Assembly (NCBI GenBank): GCA_964608675.1
Contig: CAZSOZ010000001.1
Coordinates: 128,001-192,000 of the forward strand
Source of the DNA: an uncultured archaeon
GTDB taxonomy: Archaea > Iainarchaeota > Iainarchaeia > Iainarchaeales > 1-14-0-10-31-34
DNA: 64,000 bases
Direction: 5' to 3'
Numbering within the stretch: the stretch's first letter is position 1; each line of letters begins with the position of its first letter. Shown in pieces: positions 23,656 through 28,746 of this stretch. The notes below the pieces were generated by a model. The model did not search any database and was not told where the DNA came from. It was given only the letters and a program-made list of their open reading frames with translations. A program made the position numbers and the translations under genes.

Positions 23656-23660
23656 CAGCT

Positions 23661-23732
23661 GGGCCTGTGGTCTATTGGTATGACGCCACGCTTACAACGT
23701 GGAGACAGGCGGTCCGATTCCGCCCAGGCCCA
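23661..23732 (+). tRNA. tRNA-Val(TAC)
   Basis: GGGCCTG/CAGGCCC acceptor; CCACG-CTTACAA-CGTGG anticodon arm. Confidence 0.93.
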
Positions 23733-23801
23733 AAGCTTTTGCGAAACAATTAAATACAACTGATTCTTTTTTATTAACAGAAACATCAGGAGGTAATTAT
23801 T

Positions 23802-24277: not shown

Positions 24278-24433
24278 GCGACCGTGGTTTAGTGGTAGAA
24301 TAGGAGCTTGCCAAAAACCTTTTTTAGAAAAAAAGCTTTACCAAAAAAGGTTTTCACTTCGTGAAAACTTATTTTTTAATTAGTAAAGGTTTGTTATTAG
24401 CTTCGGACTCGGGTTCAATTCCCGGCGGTCGCA
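24278..24433 (+). tRNA. tRNA-Gly(GCC) with 85-nt intron at 37/38 (24314-24398)
   Basis: GCGACCG/CGGTCGC acceptor; GGAGC-TTGCCA|intron|A-GCTTC; BHB-like junction. Confidence 0.92.
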
Positions 24434-24653: not shown

Positions 24654-24724
24654 GCGTCCATAGTCTAGTGGTATGACGCGAGCCTTCCAAGCTCGATGTC
24701 CGGGTTCGATTCCCGGTGGGCGCA
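24654..24724 (+). tRNA. tRNA-Gly(TCC)
   Basis: CGAGC-CTTCCAA-GCTCG anticodon arm; GTTCGATTC T-loop. Confidence 0.95.
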
Positions 24725-24758
24725 CTTTTTATTTTCTTTTTAATCTAATTTTAATGAA

Positions 24759-25637
24759 ATGAAAAAGAAAAACAAAAACCTAATTAAAGAAATTGCTTTA
24801 GAGAGAATGTACAGATTAATGGATTTAGCAATTGAAGAATGGAAAAAACACTCTGAAAGAAGCTTGGATTACTTAAAGTTAATGAAAAAAATAGGTTCAA
24901 GGAACAAAGTAAGAATTCCAATTGAGTTAAAGGAATTATACTGCAAGAAATGCATGAGTTTGTTGCTGGAAGGAAAAGACAAGGAAATCAGAGTCAAAAA
25001 CAAGAAAATTTTGATTAAATGCAAAAAATGCGGAAAAATCAAAGAAATTAAAGGAAAACAAAAAAAAGAAAAAATTGTTTTAGGAATTACAGGAAGAATT
25101 GGAACAGGAAAAACAACTGTATTAAATGAATTAAAAAAAAAAGGCTTCAAAACACTTAATGCAGACAAAATAGCAAAAAAAGAATTAGAAAAAAAAAGAG
25201 AAAAAATAAAAGAAAAATTTGGACAAGAAGTTGTTGAAAAAAAAGGAGTCCAACACAAAAAACTGGCTAAACTGGTTTTCAACAACAAAAAAAAATTAAA
25301 AGAATTAAACGAATTAATTCATCCGCTTGTAAGAAAAAAAATTGAAGAAGAACTAAAAGGAAGAAAATTTGTTGCAGTGGAAATTCCTTTGCTGTTTGAA
25401 ACAAGAATGCAAAACTTATGCGACAAGGTTTTGGTTGTGACAGCAAAAAAAGAAAAAATAATTCAAAGAAACAAAAAAATGAACAAAAAAGAAATAGAAA
25501 AAAGAATGAAAAATCAAATGAATTCAAAAGAAAAAAAAAGGAAAGCAGATTTTGTGCTGGAAAACAACGGAAATTTAAAGGAATTGCAGGAAAAAATAAA
25601 TGAATTAATAAAAAAAATTGAAAATGAATTAAAATAA
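24759..25637 (+). CDS. Fusion: RNase P protein Rpp21 + bacterial-type dephospho-CoA kinase CoaE
   Basis: N-terminal IALERM...CKKC...CKKCG; C-terminal GITGRIGTGKT, ADKIA, IHPLV, EIPLLFE, ADFVLENNG. Confidence 0.88.
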   Translation: MKKKNKNLIKEIALERMYRLMDLAIEEWKKHSERSLDYLKLMKKIGSRNKVRIPIELKELYCKKCMSLLLEGKDKEIRVKNKKILIKCKKCGKIKEIKGKQKKEKIVLGITGRIGTGKTTVLNELKKKGFKTLNADKIAKKELEKKREKIKEKFGQEVVEKKGVQHKKLAKLVFNNKKKLKELNELIHPLVRKKIEEELKGRKFVAVEIPLLFETRMQNLCDKVLVVTAKKEKIIQRNKKMNKKEIEKRMKNQMNSKEKKRKADFVLENNGNLKELQEKINELIKKIENELK

Positions 25638-25684
25638 AAAACTTAAAGGAGTTCAAACAAAAAATAAATGAAAAAGGTTATTTT

Positions 25685-26161
25685 ATGAAAACAGGAGTTT
25701 ATGCAGGAAGCTTTGACCCAATCACTTTTGGACATATAGACATAATTGAACGGGCTGAAAAATTATTTGATGAAATCATTCTGCTGGTAGCAGAAAACAA
25801 AAAAAAACAAGCATTGTTTTCTCTTTCAGAAAGAAAAGAAATGCTTGAAGAACTATTTAAAGAAAAAAAACACATTAAAGTAGAAGTTTTAAGCGGACTG
25901 CTTGCAGAATACATGAAAGAAAAAAAACTGCATTTCATTATAAGAGGATTAAGAGCAATAAGCGATTTTGATTATGAATTCCAGCATTCAACAATAAACA
26001 AAGAACTAAACAAAGAAATCGAAACAGTTTTTTTGATGACCGACAGAAAATACTTTTATTTAAGTTCAGGCATGGTCAAAGAAATAATCAAACTAAAAGG
26101 AAACACAAAACAATTCATGCCAAAAATAATTGAAAGAAAATTAAAAGAAAAACTTAAATAA
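25685..26161 (+). CDS. coaD: Bacterial-type phosphopantetheine adenylyltransferase
   Basis: GSFDPITFGHIDII, IRGLRAISDFDYE, SSGMVKEI. Confidence 0.95.
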   Translation: MKTGVYAGSFDPITFGHIDIIERAEKLFDEIILLVAENKKKQALFSLSERKEMLEELFKEKKHIKVEVLSGLLAEYMKEKKLHFIIRGLRAISDFDYEFQHSTINKELNKEIETVFLMTDRKYFYLSSGMVKEIIKLKGNTKQFMPKIIERKLKEKLK

Positions 26162-26248
26162 AACCTGATTTTAAAAAAAAAACGAAAAATATATATACCT
26201 CTAAAAAGATTATTAGATTATTCTTTAATAAAAGAGGTGAAAAAAAAA

Positions 26249-26533
26249 ATGAAAAAAACAATAATAACAATCCTCATAATAAGCATAATAACCCTAACAG
26301 GCTGCACAGAAACAGGAAAAGCAATAAACACCGAAGACACAACAACCCTAGAACCCGACCAACCAACAAACGCATCAGCAACAGCAAAATGCCTCAACGG
26401 CACAACAGTAACCTGCACAGGAACTGCCTGCTATGCAAAAGATGCGTCCCAGAACGATGATGGAACATTTACAGACGGGCTCTGCGGGTGTGGTCTCGAG
26501 CAAACTAAATGCCCGACTCCAGTAGCAAAATAA
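26249..26533 (+). CDS. Small Cys-rich lipoprotein
   Basis: LTGC lipobox; six further Cys. Confidence 0.7.
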   Translation: MKKTIITILIISIITLTGCTETGKAINTEDTTTLEPDQPTNASATAKCLNGTTVTCTGTACYAKDASQNDDGTFTDGLCGCGLEQTKCPTPVAK

Positions 26534-26634
26534 AAAAAGAAAAAATATCCAACAAAAAAGAGGAAAAAAACTTTAACCCTCTTTTCCTTTTTCTTTTCAA
26601 TAACATTAAATTACTTTTTTCTTATAATTGTTGA

Positions 26635-27081
26635 ATGCCTGCAATAAAAAATAAAACCAAAAAAAGAAAAAACATTTCATTTGGAAAAAAAGTTCTTTCA
26701 AACAGAATGGCCAAAACAAACAGACAAAAAAATATTCCAACAATTGTTTTTTGCTGCGAGGCAGGAGGCTCAAGCGGAGTAATAGCAAGGTCTCTTCAAA
26801 GGGAACTGGAAAAAAAAGGAATCAAAAAGTTTAGAATAAAAAATGCAGGGCTTTACAATGAATCAGCAGACAGAATTTTAAGCCAAGCTGATTTGGTTGT
26901 TTCGCCTGTTTCACTTAAGGCGCTAATGAAAAATAAAAGCATACCTGAAAAAATAAAAAAAATTTTAAGAAAAAAAAAGTTAATAGAAGAAAATATTTCT
27001 GTGCTGACTGACACAGGAAAAATAAACCGGCAGTTCCTTGAAAAAGCAGAGAAAAAGCTGAAGGAAAAAAACCTGAATTGA
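26635..27081 (+). CDS. Basic orphan with PTS EIIB/LMW-phosphatase-like Cys P-loop
   Basis: IVFCCEAGGSSG...ADLVVSP. Confidence 0.55.
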   Translation: MPAIKNKTKKRKNISFGKKVLSNRMAKTNRQKNIPTIVFCCEAGGSSGVIARSLQRELEKKGIKKFRIKNAGLYNESADRILSQADLVVSPVSLKALMKNKSIPEKIKKILRKKKLIEENISVLTDTGKINRQFLEKAEKKLKEKNLN

Positions 27082-27202
27082 TGACCGGAAGATAAGTATA
27101 AAAAGGTTGTTTTTGATAAAATAATAAGAGAAAAAAACCTCAAATTCTCTAATACTTAATATTACGCTTTTTTGTGTTATTTAAGACATGGAGGCAGTTT
27201 TA

Positions 27203-27763
27203 ATGGTTTCAGTGTACGATGTGCCGGGAACAGAATTAATTAAAGAAATAGCAAAAGAATTAAAAGAAAACAAAAACATAATTCAGCCTGAATACGTGGA
27301 TTACGTTAAAACAGGAGCCCACAAAGAAAGAGCTCCACAAGAAGACGGCTGGTATTATACAAGAATGGCTTCAATTCTAAGAAGAATTTTTTTAGACGGA
27401 CCGATTGGAACAGAATCCCTAAGAACATATTATGGAGGCAAAAAAAACAGAGGAGTAAGACCAAACAAAAAAATTAAAGCAGGAGGAAAAATAATAAGAG
27501 ACTGCCTGCAGGCGTTAGAAAAAGAAGGCTTAATAAAAAAAGAAAAAAAAGGAAGAATTACAACAAGCAAAGGAACTGCTTTCTTAAAACAAGCTTCAAA
27601 AAAAACAGAAGAAAACCTTAAAACAAACCCAAAAACAAGAAAAAAAAGAAATTTAACTCTAGCAAAAGAAAAAGGTTCACAAGAACCAAAAGAAAAAAAG
27701 AAAAAAGAAAAGAAAGGGAAAGAAAATGAACCCAGAGGAGATAAAGCAAAAAAAAATAAATGA
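27203..27763 (+). CDS. rps19e: Ribosomal protein S19e with basic C-terminal tail
   Basis: VKTGAHKERAP, WYYTRMASILR, YGG. Confidence 0.95.
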   Translation: MVSVYDVPGTELIKEIAKELKENKNIIQPEYVDYVKTGAHKERAPQEDGWYYTRMASILRRIFLDGPIGTESLRTYYGGKKNRGVRPNKKIKAGGKIIRDCLQALEKEGLIKKEKKGRITTSKGTAFLKQASKKTEENLKTNPKTRKKRNLTLAKEKGSQEPKEKKKKEKKGKENEPRGDKAKKNK

Positions 27764-28043
27764 ATTAAAAGAAAAATATTCGCATCAAATGGAAGAACAA
27801 AACAGGAGGACCGACTTAGAAAACCAGATTGAATCTGCATTAAAGCTTGTTTTAACAGAAAACGCAAAAACAAGGCTTTATAATGTAAAACTGGTTAACC
27901 GGGAACTATATTTAAAAACAGCACAAAATCTTATTTATTTATATAAATCAGGTCAAATAAACGAAAAAATCGGAGACATCCAGCTGAAAAACCTGCTTGA
28001 AAAACTTTCTGCAAAAAGAGAAATAAATATTAAGAGAAAATAA
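27726..28043 (+). CDS. PDCD5-like DNA-binding protein
   Basis: LTENAKTRLYNVKLV; conserved position after rps19e. Confidence 0.9.
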   Translation: MNPEEIKQKKINELKEKYSHQMEEQNRRTDLENQIESALKLVLTENAKTRLYNVKLVNRELYLKTAQNLIYLYKSGQINEKIGDIQLKNLLEKLSAKREINIKRK

Positions 28044-28055
28044 AGGTGAAGAAAA

Positions 28056-28244
28056 ATGGCAAGACACAAAAAAAAAGAAAAAAAAGATTTTCTGATTTCT
28101 GAAAGAAAAAAAATAGGAGCAGGAATCAGCAACGCCCCAGTATGGATTGTCCAAAAAAAAGGAGAAAGAATCTGGAACACCAAACAAAAAAGGCACTGGA
28201 AAAACGTTGATTTAGGAAAATTATACAAAAAAAAGAAAGAATAA
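28056..28244 (+). CDS. rpl39e: Ribosomal protein L39e
   Basis: APVWIVQK...KRHWK; synteny. Confidence 0.85.
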   Translation: MARHKKKEKKDFLISERKKIGAGISNAPVWIVQKKGERIWNTKQKRHWKNVDLGKLYKKKKE

Positions 28245-28257
28245 AAGGTGAAATTAA

Positions 28258-28746
28258 ATGGCAACAGATGTTTATACAATTCCTTTGAAAAAAACAATAA
28301 ACAATAAACCAAGAAGAGGGAGAGCAAAAAAAGCCATAAGAGCTGTAAAAAACTTTTTAAAAAAACACAGAAGATTAAATGAAGAAAATATTGCTGTTTC
28401 AAAAGAAGTAAATGAAAAAATATGGGAAAACGGAATGCAGGGAATACCCCGAAAAATTGAAGTTCAATTAAAAGAAATAGAAGGAAAAACTTTTGTTTTT
28501 CTTAAAGAAGGAAAAGAATTAAAGGAAAAAGAAAAAGAAATAAAAGAAAAAAAGAAAGAAGAAAAAAAAGCAAAAGAAGAAAAAGAAAAGCAAACTGAAG
28601 AAGAAAAAAAAGCAAAAGAAGAAAAAGAAAAGCAAACTGAAGAAGAAAAAAAAGCAGAAGAAGAAAAAAAAAGAAAATTAGAAGAAAAAAGGCAGAAAGA
28701 AAAAGACGCACAAAAAATTGAAATAAAAAGAAAAACAAAAGAGTAA
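28258..28746 (+). CDS. rpl31e: Ribosomal protein L31e with long K/E tail
   Basis: YTIPL...RAKKAI...VNEKIW..G...PRKI. Confidence 0.92.
   Translation: MATDVYTIPLKKTINNKPRRGRAKKAIRAVKNFLKKHRRLNEENIAVSKEVNEKIWENGMQGIPRKIEVQLKEIEGKTFVFLKEGKELKEKEKEIKEKKKEEKKAKEEKEKQTEEEKKAKEEKEKQTEEEKKAEEEKKRKLEEKRQKEKDAQKIEIKRKTKE
28561..28656 (+). repeat. 42-bp tandem repeat (about 2.3 copies) in the L31e tail
   Basis: GAAAAAAAAGCAAAAGAAGAAAAAGAAAAGCAAACTGAAGAA x2 plus a partial copy. Confidence 0.85.

Follow-up and report, generated by a model that had tools for sequence, protein, structure and literature searches.

An in-frame fusion of the RNase P subunit Rpp21 with a bacterial-type dephospho-CoA kinase, conserved in a family of DPANN archaea

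Introduction

The solved structures of archaeal Rpp21 (6K0A chain G, 1X0T and 2ZAE from P. horikoshii, 2K3R and 2KI7 from P. furiosus) have an N-terminal pair of helices and a zinc ribbon in common, and they end in a tail of about 20-27 C-terminal residues. Bacterial dephospho-CoA kinase (DPCK), or CoaE, is also represented by structures, e.g. 2IF2, 1UF9 and 1JJV. The archaeal DPCK (arCOG04076, DUF359) prefers GTP. When it was identified a gap was noted, as the available parts of PMC6650551 state that some DPANN archaea have no archaeal DPCK.

DPCKs also occur in proteins of two domains. In the eukaryotic CoA synthase (PPAT-DPCK, 2F6R), in an archaeal phosphopantetheine adenylyltransferase (PPAT) fused to an arCOG04076 DPCK (from the accessible portion of PMC6650551) and in a CoaD::CoaE fusion that we found in genome G036, the DPCK is C-terminal and two consecutive pathway steps are joined. 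Elsewhere the DPCK is C-terminal behind an unrelated or loosely related partner. Examples are the HAD-DPCK fusion of mycoplasmas, taken from the available excerpts of PMC8721197, and two fusions from our own searches, Fpg::CoaE in Acholeplasma (P0034) and NUDIX::CoaE in genome G046. According to the same excerpts and our searches, the hosts of these proteins are host-dependent, have small genomes and encode just the last one or two steps of CoA synthesis. CoaE tolerates various N-terminal partners.

Here we describe rpp21::coaE, a gene in which a bacterial-type CoaE follows Rpp21. As in the proteins above, the DPCK is at the C-terminal end, and as in the first group the PPAT step is encoded with or beside it. 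Unlike in the bifunctional CoA enzymes, however, CoaD is a separate gene, and the fusion partner has no known link to CoA. This partner is a subunit of an essential ribonucleoprotein, whereas HAD, Fpg and NUDIX proteins are soluble enzymes. Where archaeal Rpp21 has its C-terminal tail, the fusion has a linker of about nine residues and a kinase of 186 residues. The kinase resembles bacterial CoaE in its full-length domain, P-loop, catalytic Asp and lid Arg, but it is encoded in an archaeon, lacks its own start codon and sits behind an RNA-processing subunit.

A literature search found no paper with both 'Rpp21' and 'dephospho-CoA kinase'. RNase P, Rpp21, CoaE and dephospho do not appear in the available sections of the main text of a survey of archaeal fusions (PMC11237513), and neither coaD nor coaE is treated in any passage of PMC8407392. 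For DPANN archaea paired with dephospho-CoA kinase or phosphopantetheine adenylyltransferase, the search found PMC6650551 alone.

Results

The sequence analysed is a stretch of 64,000 nt (the window, whose coordinates are used throughout) from genome GCA_964608675.1, contig CAZSOZ010000001.1. The source is a DPANN archaeon of the phylum Iainarchaeota/Diapherotrites, home of 'Ca. Iainarchaeum'. The fusion gene is an uninterrupted ORF of 292 aa plus stop on the plus strand (24759..25637). Residues 1-97 (24759..25049, +) make up an Rpp21 domain (RNase P component 4, Rpr2 family) with a pair of helices at the N-terminus and a zinc ribbon of four Cys (C62, C65, C88 and C91). Residues 98-106 (25050..25076, +) form a Lys-rich linker of about 9 aa, which includes a run of eight A at 25060-25067, and residues 107-292 (25077..25634, +) a bacterial-type dephospho-CoA kinase domain with a P-loop (G109-T119), D136 and R237. 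The next gene, 47 nt 3' of the fusion, is coaD (25685..26161, +), which encodes a bacterial-type phosphopantetheine adenylyltransferase of 158 aa. A sequence-only reading of this DNA had proposed a single Rpp21-CoaE ORF with a Met-free junction, followed by a bacterial-style coaD, and all of this holds: complete Rpr2 and CoaE domains lie in one frame, no in-frame ATG, GTG or TTG occurs in the window between C91 and the P-loop, and TIGR01510 matches at 25685-26161. Profile searches of the 1.21-Mb, 94%-complete genome give this ORF as the sole Rpr2 match and the sole CoaE match.

The Rpp21 half is recognized by the Pfam model Rpr2 (PF04032) at residues 16-92, with 46.9 bits against a cut-off of 29.3 and with profile positions 1-90 of 90 covered. 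In the fusions of three other genera of the same family this model scores 41.9-54.7 bits. The domain aligns along its whole length with residues 1-101 (of 128) of the M. jannaschii Rpp21 chain 6k0a_G, its four Cys align with the Cys pairs of solved archaeal Rpp21 chains, and these Cys are kept in every fused row of our alignment A1 that covers the region. It stays under the cut-off of the stricter NCBIfam equivalog model for RNase P component 4, NF003045 (49.7 bits, cut-off 162). An RNase P RNA, which the sequence-only reading had suggested as a check, was found elsewhere in the genome, at G000:C2:25148-25472 (RF00373, 101.3 bits; gathering score 84). Rpp29 (61.4 bits), Pop5 and Rpp30 are also encoded, and a PF04032 search of the genome found no second Rpr2/Rpp21 gene.

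We modelled the complex of the full fusion with Rpp29. The ipSAE score was 0.84 in 3 of 3 runs (best control 0.01). Of 157 solved complexes 116 attain the mark, as do 2 of 215 mismatched pairs. Rpp21-Rpp29 is a textbook pair, so the high score may stem from resemblance to structures already solved for it. The partner has a pLDDT of at least 84 and the runs have at least 96% of contacts in common. The predicted contact with Rpp29 is made by the N-terminal helices, and the modelled interface is confined to fusion residues 5-49, away from the CoaE domain. Residues 1-97 would be the cell's only Rpp21 and would pair with Rpp29 through the two N-terminal helices. The enzyme would otherwise be an ordinary archaeal RNase P, made up of the RNA, Rpp29, Pop5, Rpp30 and the Rpp21 half of the fusion.

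The sequence-only reading had also called CoaE and CoaD bacterial in type, and family models and control genomes bear this out. The Pfam model CoaE (PF01121) matches residues 107-275 with 139.7 bits (cut-off 27) and the NCBIfam dephospho-CoA kinase equivalog TIGR00152 scores 157.7 bits (cut-off 65.55). A profile of the fusion matches the solved DPCK 2if2_A with an E-value of 1.4e-47. The family models match in the bacterial control genomes, and PF01121 matches none of four archaeal ones. Both halves are conserved in alignment A1, with the four Cys kept in the Rpp21 domain and the P-loop, D136, H188-P189 and R237 in the kinase. T111, G112, G117, K118, D136 and R237 are identical in all 22 of its rows. 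D136 would correspond to the catalytic Asp and R237 to the lid Arg of solved DPCKs. The CoaD protein scores 190.9 bits with the bacterial coaD model TIGR01510 (cut-off 103.3) and 19 bits with the archaeal PPAT model NF001985 (cut-off 104). Near its N-terminus the translation has TFGH, the T/HxGH motif of nucleotidyltransferases.

Residues 107-292 (186 aa) would be an ATP-dependent, bacterial-type dephospho-CoA kinase. The available part of PMC6650551 reports that two homologues of bacterial DPCK in T. kodakarensis are without DPCK activity, so membership of the family does not by itself prove the DPCK reaction in an archaeon. The conserved adjacency of coaE and coaD (see below) argues for a true dephospho-CoA kinase function. 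The inactive T. kodakarensis proteins, together with the NF003045 score below cut-off, could also be taken to mean that one half of the fusion is a passenger, either because RNase P has come to function without the Rpp21 domain or because the CoaE domain is catalytically dead and remains as mere bulk. To this reading we give little credence. Catalytic and zinc-binding residues are all conserved over overall identities of 45-72%, TIGR00152 is well above its cut-off and each function is present as a sole copy in the genome. RNase P RNA and Rpp29 are present, the Rpp29 interface is predicted with high confidence, and CoaD lies beside the fusion in 6 of 7 other loci of the family. Both activities have probably been retained.

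The fusion is not limited to the source genome. The sequence-only reading had proposed looking for it in related genomes, and 7 of the 8 others of the same family (f1, nine genomes counting the source) have it, across 4 genera and at 45-72% identity; Pfam confirms both domains in the three other genera. Both Pfam domains are also annotated in 17 of 95 other database matches. A search of 1.84 billion clusters at 50% identity gave, among its best 150 representatives, 4 that extend over both domains, and the others cover CoaE only. In all other families searched, stand-alone rpp21 and coaE are the rule. Public records name the fusion proteins only 'dephospho-CoA kinase', so automated inventories would score these genomes as lacking Rpp21.

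Could the fusion be an artefact of assembly, with two genes whose stop and start are hidden by a homopolymer error in the A-rich junction? The sequence-only reading had raised this possibility. The junction does contain the A8 run and an A6 run, and the loss of a single A would bring a stop into frame within a few codons. Read evidence comes from Logan contigs of two runs of one study, X1 (possibly the source) and X2 (a second sample). The X1 contigs have no cover at 25045-25075. One X2 contig of 234 nt (record 8) spans 24862-25095, reaching 28 nt beyond the A-run, with no difference and no gap; it agrees across the A8, although this is weak support. The other Logan contig matches to the stretch are mostly short and of low complexity, and no RNA run containing it is listed.

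The comparative evidence decides against such an error. The open fusion occurs in seven other genomes and in 17 proteins from NCBI, JGI, ENA and Logan assemblies, and the fusions elsewhere in the family have different junction codons and run lengths with the frame still open. That the same open fusion is seen in independent assemblies with differing junction codons indicates that the A8 run is real. From zinc ribbon to P-loop there are no alignment gaps in any fused row, down to 45% identity. We examined eight junction loci of the family, five parsed by pattern and three read by eye. None has an in-frame ATG that could serve as an internal CoaE start, and a GTG just 5' of the P-loop is found in 2 of the 5 parsed junctions and is not conserved. 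A separate CoaE from an internal start was rejected on these grounds, as ATG is missing and GTG sporadic. The artefact is close to refuted, and we leave it hardly any probability. On the sequence evidence we regard rpp21::coaE as a genuine and conserved fusion.

The gene order around the fusion suggests how it may have arisen. Downstream, at 27188..28746 (+), are rps19e, a gene for a PDCD5-like DNA-binding protein, rpl39e and rpl31e (Pfam S19e, dsDNA_bind). In unfused loci of related families rpp21 is followed by rps19e-PDCD5-L39e-L31e in 11 of 16, with rpp21 and rps19e within about 2 kb, i.e. stand-alone rpp21 lies upstream of the rps19e cluster just as the fusion gene does. All 7 other loci of f1 have the order rpp21::coaE-(coaD)-rps19e. 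Between coaD and rps19e in the window are two ORFs (26237..27081, +) of 98 aa (possibly secreted) and 148 aa (PTS_IIB-like), for which tblastn gave no match in the 26 related loci searched.

Upstream, the sequence-only reading had seen a pair of tRNA genes. ARAGORN gives tRNA-Val(UAC) at 23660-23733 (+) and tRNA-Gly(UCC) at 24654-24725 (+), and a third tRNA, an intron-containing tRNA-Gly(GCC), lies at 24278-24433 (+). The neighbours are thus there, but they are conserved in the genus only: tRNA adjacency is found in 3 of 4 other loci of genus g1 and in none of 3 loci of other genera. We therefore rejected it as part of the fusion's origin.

The coaE-coaD pair itself is much more widespread. 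Of the 215 genomes of the phylum, 95 have a TIGR00152 match above cut-off, in most cases a coaE that stands alone and adjoins coaD, and coaD lies immediately 3' of coaE in 26 of 29 related loci. The CoaE tree puts f1 together with families f13 and f3 (support 91). The AU test does not reject one clade holding all 37 CoaE rows of Iainarchaeota (p-AU 0.971), and constraining the tree to that clade improves on the free quick tree by 64 lnL units. Archaeal and bacterial rows are mixed in two weak clusters and the deep branches lack resolution, so no donor can be named. The CoaD tree, an unrooted quick search with uneven sampling (every fourth unnamed match plus 13 named ones), places 27 of 28 Iainarchaeota rows together (support 87) with f1 (support 94) nested among them, and an Omnitrophota/Ratteibacteria clade as nearest sampled neighbour (support 92).

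These results bear on the proposal, made in the sequence-only reading, that a bacterial module was transferred onto rpp21. In its strict form, recent horizontal transfer would have brought a bacterial coaE-coaD cassette straight to rpp21 in the source lineage. Both enzymes do belong to bacterial-type families, and their nearest named non-archaeal relatives are from Omnitrophota and Ratteibacteria (CoaE 38-42%, CoaD 54-57% identity). Among other DPANN archaea, Woesearchaeota and Aenigmatarchaeota also have members of these families. However, most families of the order have the pair as neighbouring stand-alone genes, while none of 73 loci outside Iainarchaeota has this adjacency. CoaD and CoaE of f1 nest among other Iainarchaeales and a single phylum clade is not rejected, so that the present data lean against a recent arrival, which we consider very unlikely. 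Since the pair is found as stand-alone genes throughout the order, the module was evidently not transferred onto rpp21. With the CoaE clade not rejected and the CoaD rows grouped, the picture is essentially that of a vertically inherited archaeal clade since the order diversified, which the sequence-only reading had named as counting against its proposal. By these comparisons the coaE-coaD pair is no recent arrival in the order, and a much older bacterial origin is likely.

Specific to f1 is probably a move of the pair, within the genome, into the rpp21-rps19e cluster, after which the fusion arose in frame. The pair, which is old in the order and apparently does the work of an absent archaeal PPAT and DPCK, would have moved between rpp21 and rps19e in the f1 ancestor. 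The rpp21 stop and the coaE start would then have been lost, joining the frames through the linker of about nine residues. That relocation came before fusion is suggested by present gene orders only.

The rest of the CoA pathway fits a salvage role. Profile searches of the source genome gave no match for CoaB, CoaC (CoaBC), CoaX, PPS or Flavoprotein, and DFP is found in 0 of 9 f1 genomes against 55 of 215 genomes of the phylum. The archaeal DPCK model (DUF359, PF04019) matches 4 of 4 archaeal control genomes; it finds nothing in the source genome and matches 1 of 215 genomes of the phylum. The sequence-only reading had mentioned salvage as a possible role for the last two steps, and with CoaB, CoaC, CoaX and PPS absent this is the natural reading. 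The fusion's kinase and the adjacent CoaD would turn scavenged 4'-phosphopantetheine into CoA. One f1 genome, G018 (99% complete), keeps the fused CoaE domain while CoaD was not found; genome G011 is a second candidate for such a CoaE-only state.

Discussion

The comparisons make it probable that rpp21::coaE encodes a bifunctional protein that arose by fusion of neighbouring genes, in a lineage that salvages 4'-phosphopantetheine. The fusion most likely came about through an accident of gene order. It would need no functional link between tRNA processing and CoA.

Such a link can nevertheless be imagined. The kinase domain might be a working part of the RNase P particle, with the halves kept together by selection. 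For example, tRNA 5' maturation might be coupled to the state of CoA, dephospho-CoA or ATP, or the particle might have an RNA-linked substrate, for instance dephospho-CoA-capped RNA. The fusion persists in four genera with both halves conserved, and the predicted Rpp29 interface leaves the CoaE domain free. The constant linker length and the CoaE domain of G018, kept without a detectable CoaD, would also fit a role of CoaE inside the RNase P particle. We still think a functional tether unlikely. The order of the genes gives a simple way for the fusion to have arisen by accident, all other families searched normally have rpp21 and coaE as stand-alone genes, and just 4 clusters with the fusion appear among the best 150 representatives from 1.84 billion. 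Elsewhere CoaE is joined to several unrelated partners, the literature search gave no paper combining the two proteins, and the available excerpts of PMC8721197 show that DPCK-only genomes are known in parasitic bacteria without any RNase P link.

A bolder form of the same idea is that in f1 the RNase P holoenzyme has permanently acquired the kinase as a working module, and senses or uses nucleotides of the CoA pathway. The fixed linker and G018 leave room for this, and we rate it as distinctly unlikely. If it were true, the supply of CoA or ATP might, for example, gate tRNA maturation in a host-dependent cell, or the RNase P particle might instead act on dephospho-CoA-capped RNAs.

The fusion is also of wider interest. 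An essential RNase P subunit bearing a whole metabolic enzyme would mean that the C-terminus of Rpp21 tolerates a cargo of about 22 kDa. The fusion is also a ready-made natural test of whether tRNA processing and cofactor supply can be coupled. Across the phylum the CoA pathway appears to have been trimmed stepwise, from CoaBC, CoaD and CoaE to CoaD and CoaE and then to CoaE alone, which parallels the mycoplasmas.

The result for the phylum as a whole may be the more useful one. A bacterial-type coaE-coaD pair appears to replace the archaeal PPAT and DPCK in Iainarchaeota (TIGR00152 in 95 of 215 genomes, DUF359 in 1 of 215). This would fill part of the DPANN gap in DPCK that is described in the available parts of PMC6650551.

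An Rpp21-CoaE fusion followed by coaD

The source genome (1.21 Mb, 94% complete, with the window on contig 1) belongs to an order whose genomes carry the NCBI label 'Candidatus Iainarchaeum', and members of its family (f1) are labelled 'archaeon', 'Candidatus Micrarchaeota archaeon' or 'Candidatus Diapherotrites archaeon'. The sequence-only reading described one ORF joining Rpp21 to CoaE with no Met at the junction, followed by a bacterial-style coaD. This is correct, as evident from the ORF, the domain scores, the structure and profile alignments, the coaD match and a junction that lacks a start codon. The rpp21::coaE ORF (window 24759-25637, + strand) encodes 292 aa. Pfam places Rpr2/Rpp21 at residues 16-92 (46.9 bits, cut-off 29.3) and CoaE at residues 107-275 (139.7 bits, cut-off 27), and TIGR00152, the NCBIfam dephospho-CoA kinase (DPCK) equivalog, scores 157.7 bits (cut-off 65.55). 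Solved archaeal Rpp21 chains align end to end with the N-terminal 100 residues, e.g. positions 1-101 of 128 in M. jannaschii chain 6k0a_G, and the fusion-family profile hits solved bacterial DPCKs (E 1.4e-47). The stretch from the last zinc-ribbon Cys to the P-loop contains neither Met nor any ATG, GTG or TTG in frame. All four zinc-ribbon Cys are kept in each fused homologue that covers the region. The coaD gene (25685-26161, +; 158 aa) begins 47 bases 3′ of the fusion; its product scores 190.9 bits with the bacterial coaD equivalog TIGR01510 (cut-off 103.3) and only 19 bits with the archaeal phosphopantetheine adenylyltransferase (PPAT) model.

The fusion is genuine

Eight consecutive A (25060-25067) lie in the A-rich junction, and from the sequence one A less would create a stop within a few codons. 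A homopolymer artefact is ruled out by the open frame in independent genomes with differing junction codons: A-run lengths and codons vary, and the frame stays open throughout. It had been suggested that the fusion be sought in related genomes. Six-frame searching across the phylum Iainarchaeota (all 215 species genomes) recovered it, full-length and stop-free, in 7 of the 8 other f1 genomes; the remaining one (G011, 81% complete) is missing the whole region. The fusion-bearing genomes span four genera, and Pfam confirms both domains in the three other than the window's own. A word-indexed search returned 95 other proteins, 17 of them, from NCBI, JGI, ENA and Logan assemblies, with both Pfam domains (270-297 aa, 45-75% identical), and a further match is a fragment with its N-terminus cut off. 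Of 1.84 billion cluster representatives scanned exhaustively with HMMER, only four cover both domains, the rest of the best 150 matches being to the CoaE part alone.

Mapping reads across the junction had also been proposed. A second sample supplied a 234-nt contig that is identical over window 24862-25095, the possible source run has no contig cover at the junction, and the reads contribute little. It is the comparative sequence evidence that settles that the fusion is real. One bin, G015, holds two fusion copies on two contigs (L007, G015:C36:1-819; L037, L038), with 66% and 68% identity to the window's protein, which may reflect strain or species mixing in the MAG. No paper treating Rpp21 and DPCK together was found in the text available, and the supplements of an archaeal fusion survey (PMC11237513) could list the fusion.

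CoA genes in the genome and phylum

Archaeal DPCK prefers GTP, whereas the residues that matter in solved CoaE-type DPCKs are a P-loop, a catalytic Asp and a lid Arg. DUF359, the archaeal DPCK family, was found in all 4 archaeal control genomes, in 1 of the 215 phylum genomes and not in the source genome. Bacterial-type CoaE exceeds the cut-off in 95/215; nearly all members of many families have it, and it is missing from other families (0/38 in f14, 3/22 in f8). Outside f1, coaE is an ordinary gene (187-225 aa) whose ORF starts at the P-loop. Among related loci coaD lies directly 3′ of coaE in 26 of 29; the adjacency was seen in none of 73 loci outside the phylum (72 bacterial or unlabelled and one Aenigmatarchaeota; up to 3 kb of flank).

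The sequence-only reading also raised a check for coaBC and possible salvage of precursors. CoaBC (DFP domain) occurs in 55/215 phylum genomes and 0/9 in f1, and the source genome also lacks the Flavoprotein domain, CoaX and the archaeal phosphopantothenate synthetase, so f1 retains the last two CoA steps only. This points to uptake of 4′-phosphopantetheine, in keeping with the salvage idea. PMC8721197 proposes the same uptake for mycoplasmas with PPAT and DPCK only, which likewise keep the last two steps. G018 (f1, 99% complete), where the fusion lies immediately 5′ of rps19e (L010, L139), gives no hit to TIGR01510 and carries a single PF01467 gene; it thus seems to have DPCK alone, a pattern that PMC8721197 also describes.

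The source genome has two other nucleotidyltransferase genes, neither an archaeal PPAT: a small generic cytidylyltransferase-like protein and a bacterial-type NadD. The latter (contig C9, L036:1411-2845, - strand; TIGR00482 158.6 bits, cut-off 112.45; archaeal NMNAT model only 18.9 bits) adjoins NadC (TIGR00078 239.1 bits). By these scores NadD-NadC makes another cofactor pathway whose enzymes are of the bacterial type.

Origin of the pair and of the fusion

In a quick-search CoaE tree of 110 rows, with deep branches poorly separated, the f1 rows join those of f13 and f3 at support 91, and a single Acidobacteria row falls in the same polytomy. When the 37 Iainarchaeota rows were constrained to be monophyletic, the tree gained 64 lnL units over the unconstrained quick search (p-AU 0.971), so a single CoaE origin within the phylum is not rejected. 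The quick-search CoaD tree has 65 rows (13 named hits and every fourth unnamed one; one 53-residue fragment dropped). Here 27/28 Iainarchaeota rows group with two unnamed metagenome proteins (support 87), f1 is nested within (support 94), and the closest neighbour sampled is a clade of Omnitrophota/Ratteibacteria (support 92). Proteins labelled Woesearchaeota include bacterial-type CoaD as well. An old bacterial origin of coaE and coaD is plausible from these trees. To that extent, and in the bacterial type of both families, the transferred module first suggested holds up; its landing directly on rpp21 does not, as the pair stands alone elsewhere in the phylum.

Sixteen loci of ten other families were compared, and in 11 of them rps19e, a PDCD5-like gene, rpl39e and rpl31e come within ~2 kb after a stand-alone rpp21; the rpp21-rps19e cluster is conserved more widely in archaea. 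All 7/7 other f1 loci read rpp21::coaE, coaD (missing in G018), rps19e and PDCD5-like onward. Unfused relatives keep coaE-coaD elsewhere; in G106, for instance, the two sites share a contig but are 60 kb apart. On the simplest history, the ancestor of f1 had the pair relocated to the gap after rpp21, and the two reading frames would then have merged. The neighbouring tRNA pair, once thought part of this origin, drops out: only within the genus do these tRNA-Val and tRNA-Gly genes lie upstream. Between tRNA-Val and tRNA-Gly(UCC) sits a third tRNA gene (24278-24433, +; Rfam tRNA 45.1 bits), missed by ARAGORN, with an intron of ~87 nt and an anticodon loop reading Gly(GCC). Two ORFs between coaD and rps19e (26237-27081, +), one of 98 aa, Thr/Cys-rich with a hydrophobic N-terminus, the other of 148 aa and PTS_IIB-like (30.4 bits), had no counterpart in 26 related loci searched; in G013 the gap is ~100 nt.

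Function of the fusion protein

An RNase P RNA of the archaeal type, which had been proposed as a check, scores 101.3 bits in the source genome (gathering score 84). Rpp29, Pop5 and Rpp30 are encoded too, and the genome's one Rpr2 match is the fusion. When the full fusion was modelled in complex with its own Rpp29, the score was 0.84 in three runs (best control 0.01), with partner pLDDT no lower than 84 and 96% or more of contacts common to runs; the mark is attained by 116/157 solved complexes and 2/215 mismatched pairs. The modelled interface involves fusion residues 5-49 and none in the CoaE domain. Since Rpp21-Rpp29 is a solved textbook pair, the model shows likeness to that pair rather than binding.

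Might the kinase function inside the RNase P particle? We consider this improbable. The linker length is constant among fused homologues and G018 keeps its fused kinase though it lacks CoaD, both as such a tether would have it, but CoaE is joined to varied N-terminal partners elsewhere. NUDIX::CoaE in G046 of family f9 (L026:1477-2619, -; 380 aa; NUDIX 39.1 bits, CoaE 137.4 bits) has an N-terminal Cys-pair region and an end overlapped by coaD; its sister genome G045 has plain coaE-coaD. CoaD::CoaE in G036 of f8 (L136:1407-2546, -; 379 aa; TIGR01510 155 bits, TIGR00152 106.8 bits) has the domain order of eukaryotic CoA synthase. Also in f8, where most genomes are without CoaE, a CoaE match in G037 (G037:C2:13885-14427) lies within a 381-aa open frame. 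Beyond the phylum, Fpg/MutM::CoaE proteins (P0034, P0042, P0086; 453-467 aa; one labelled Acholeplasma hippikon) are, by their domains, another coaE neighbour-gene fusion in small genomes, and a HAD-DPCK fusion is described in mycoplasmas (PMC8721197). This range of partners favours an accidental neighbour-gene fusion, tolerated in a streamlined genome.

Identity within f1 versus that to unfused relatives is 50-64% against 40-56% for Rpp21 and 39-47% against 33-44% for CoaE; by this measure the conservation rates of both halves resemble those of unfused orthologues. In T. kodakarensis, homologues of bacterial DPCK have no DPCK activity (PMC6650551), so the kinase reaction here is a predicted one. 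The fusion product is most likely bifunctional: the Rpp21 half would join Rpp29 on RNase P RNA, and the kinase half, together with CoaD, would complete CoA from scavenged 4′-phosphopantetheine.
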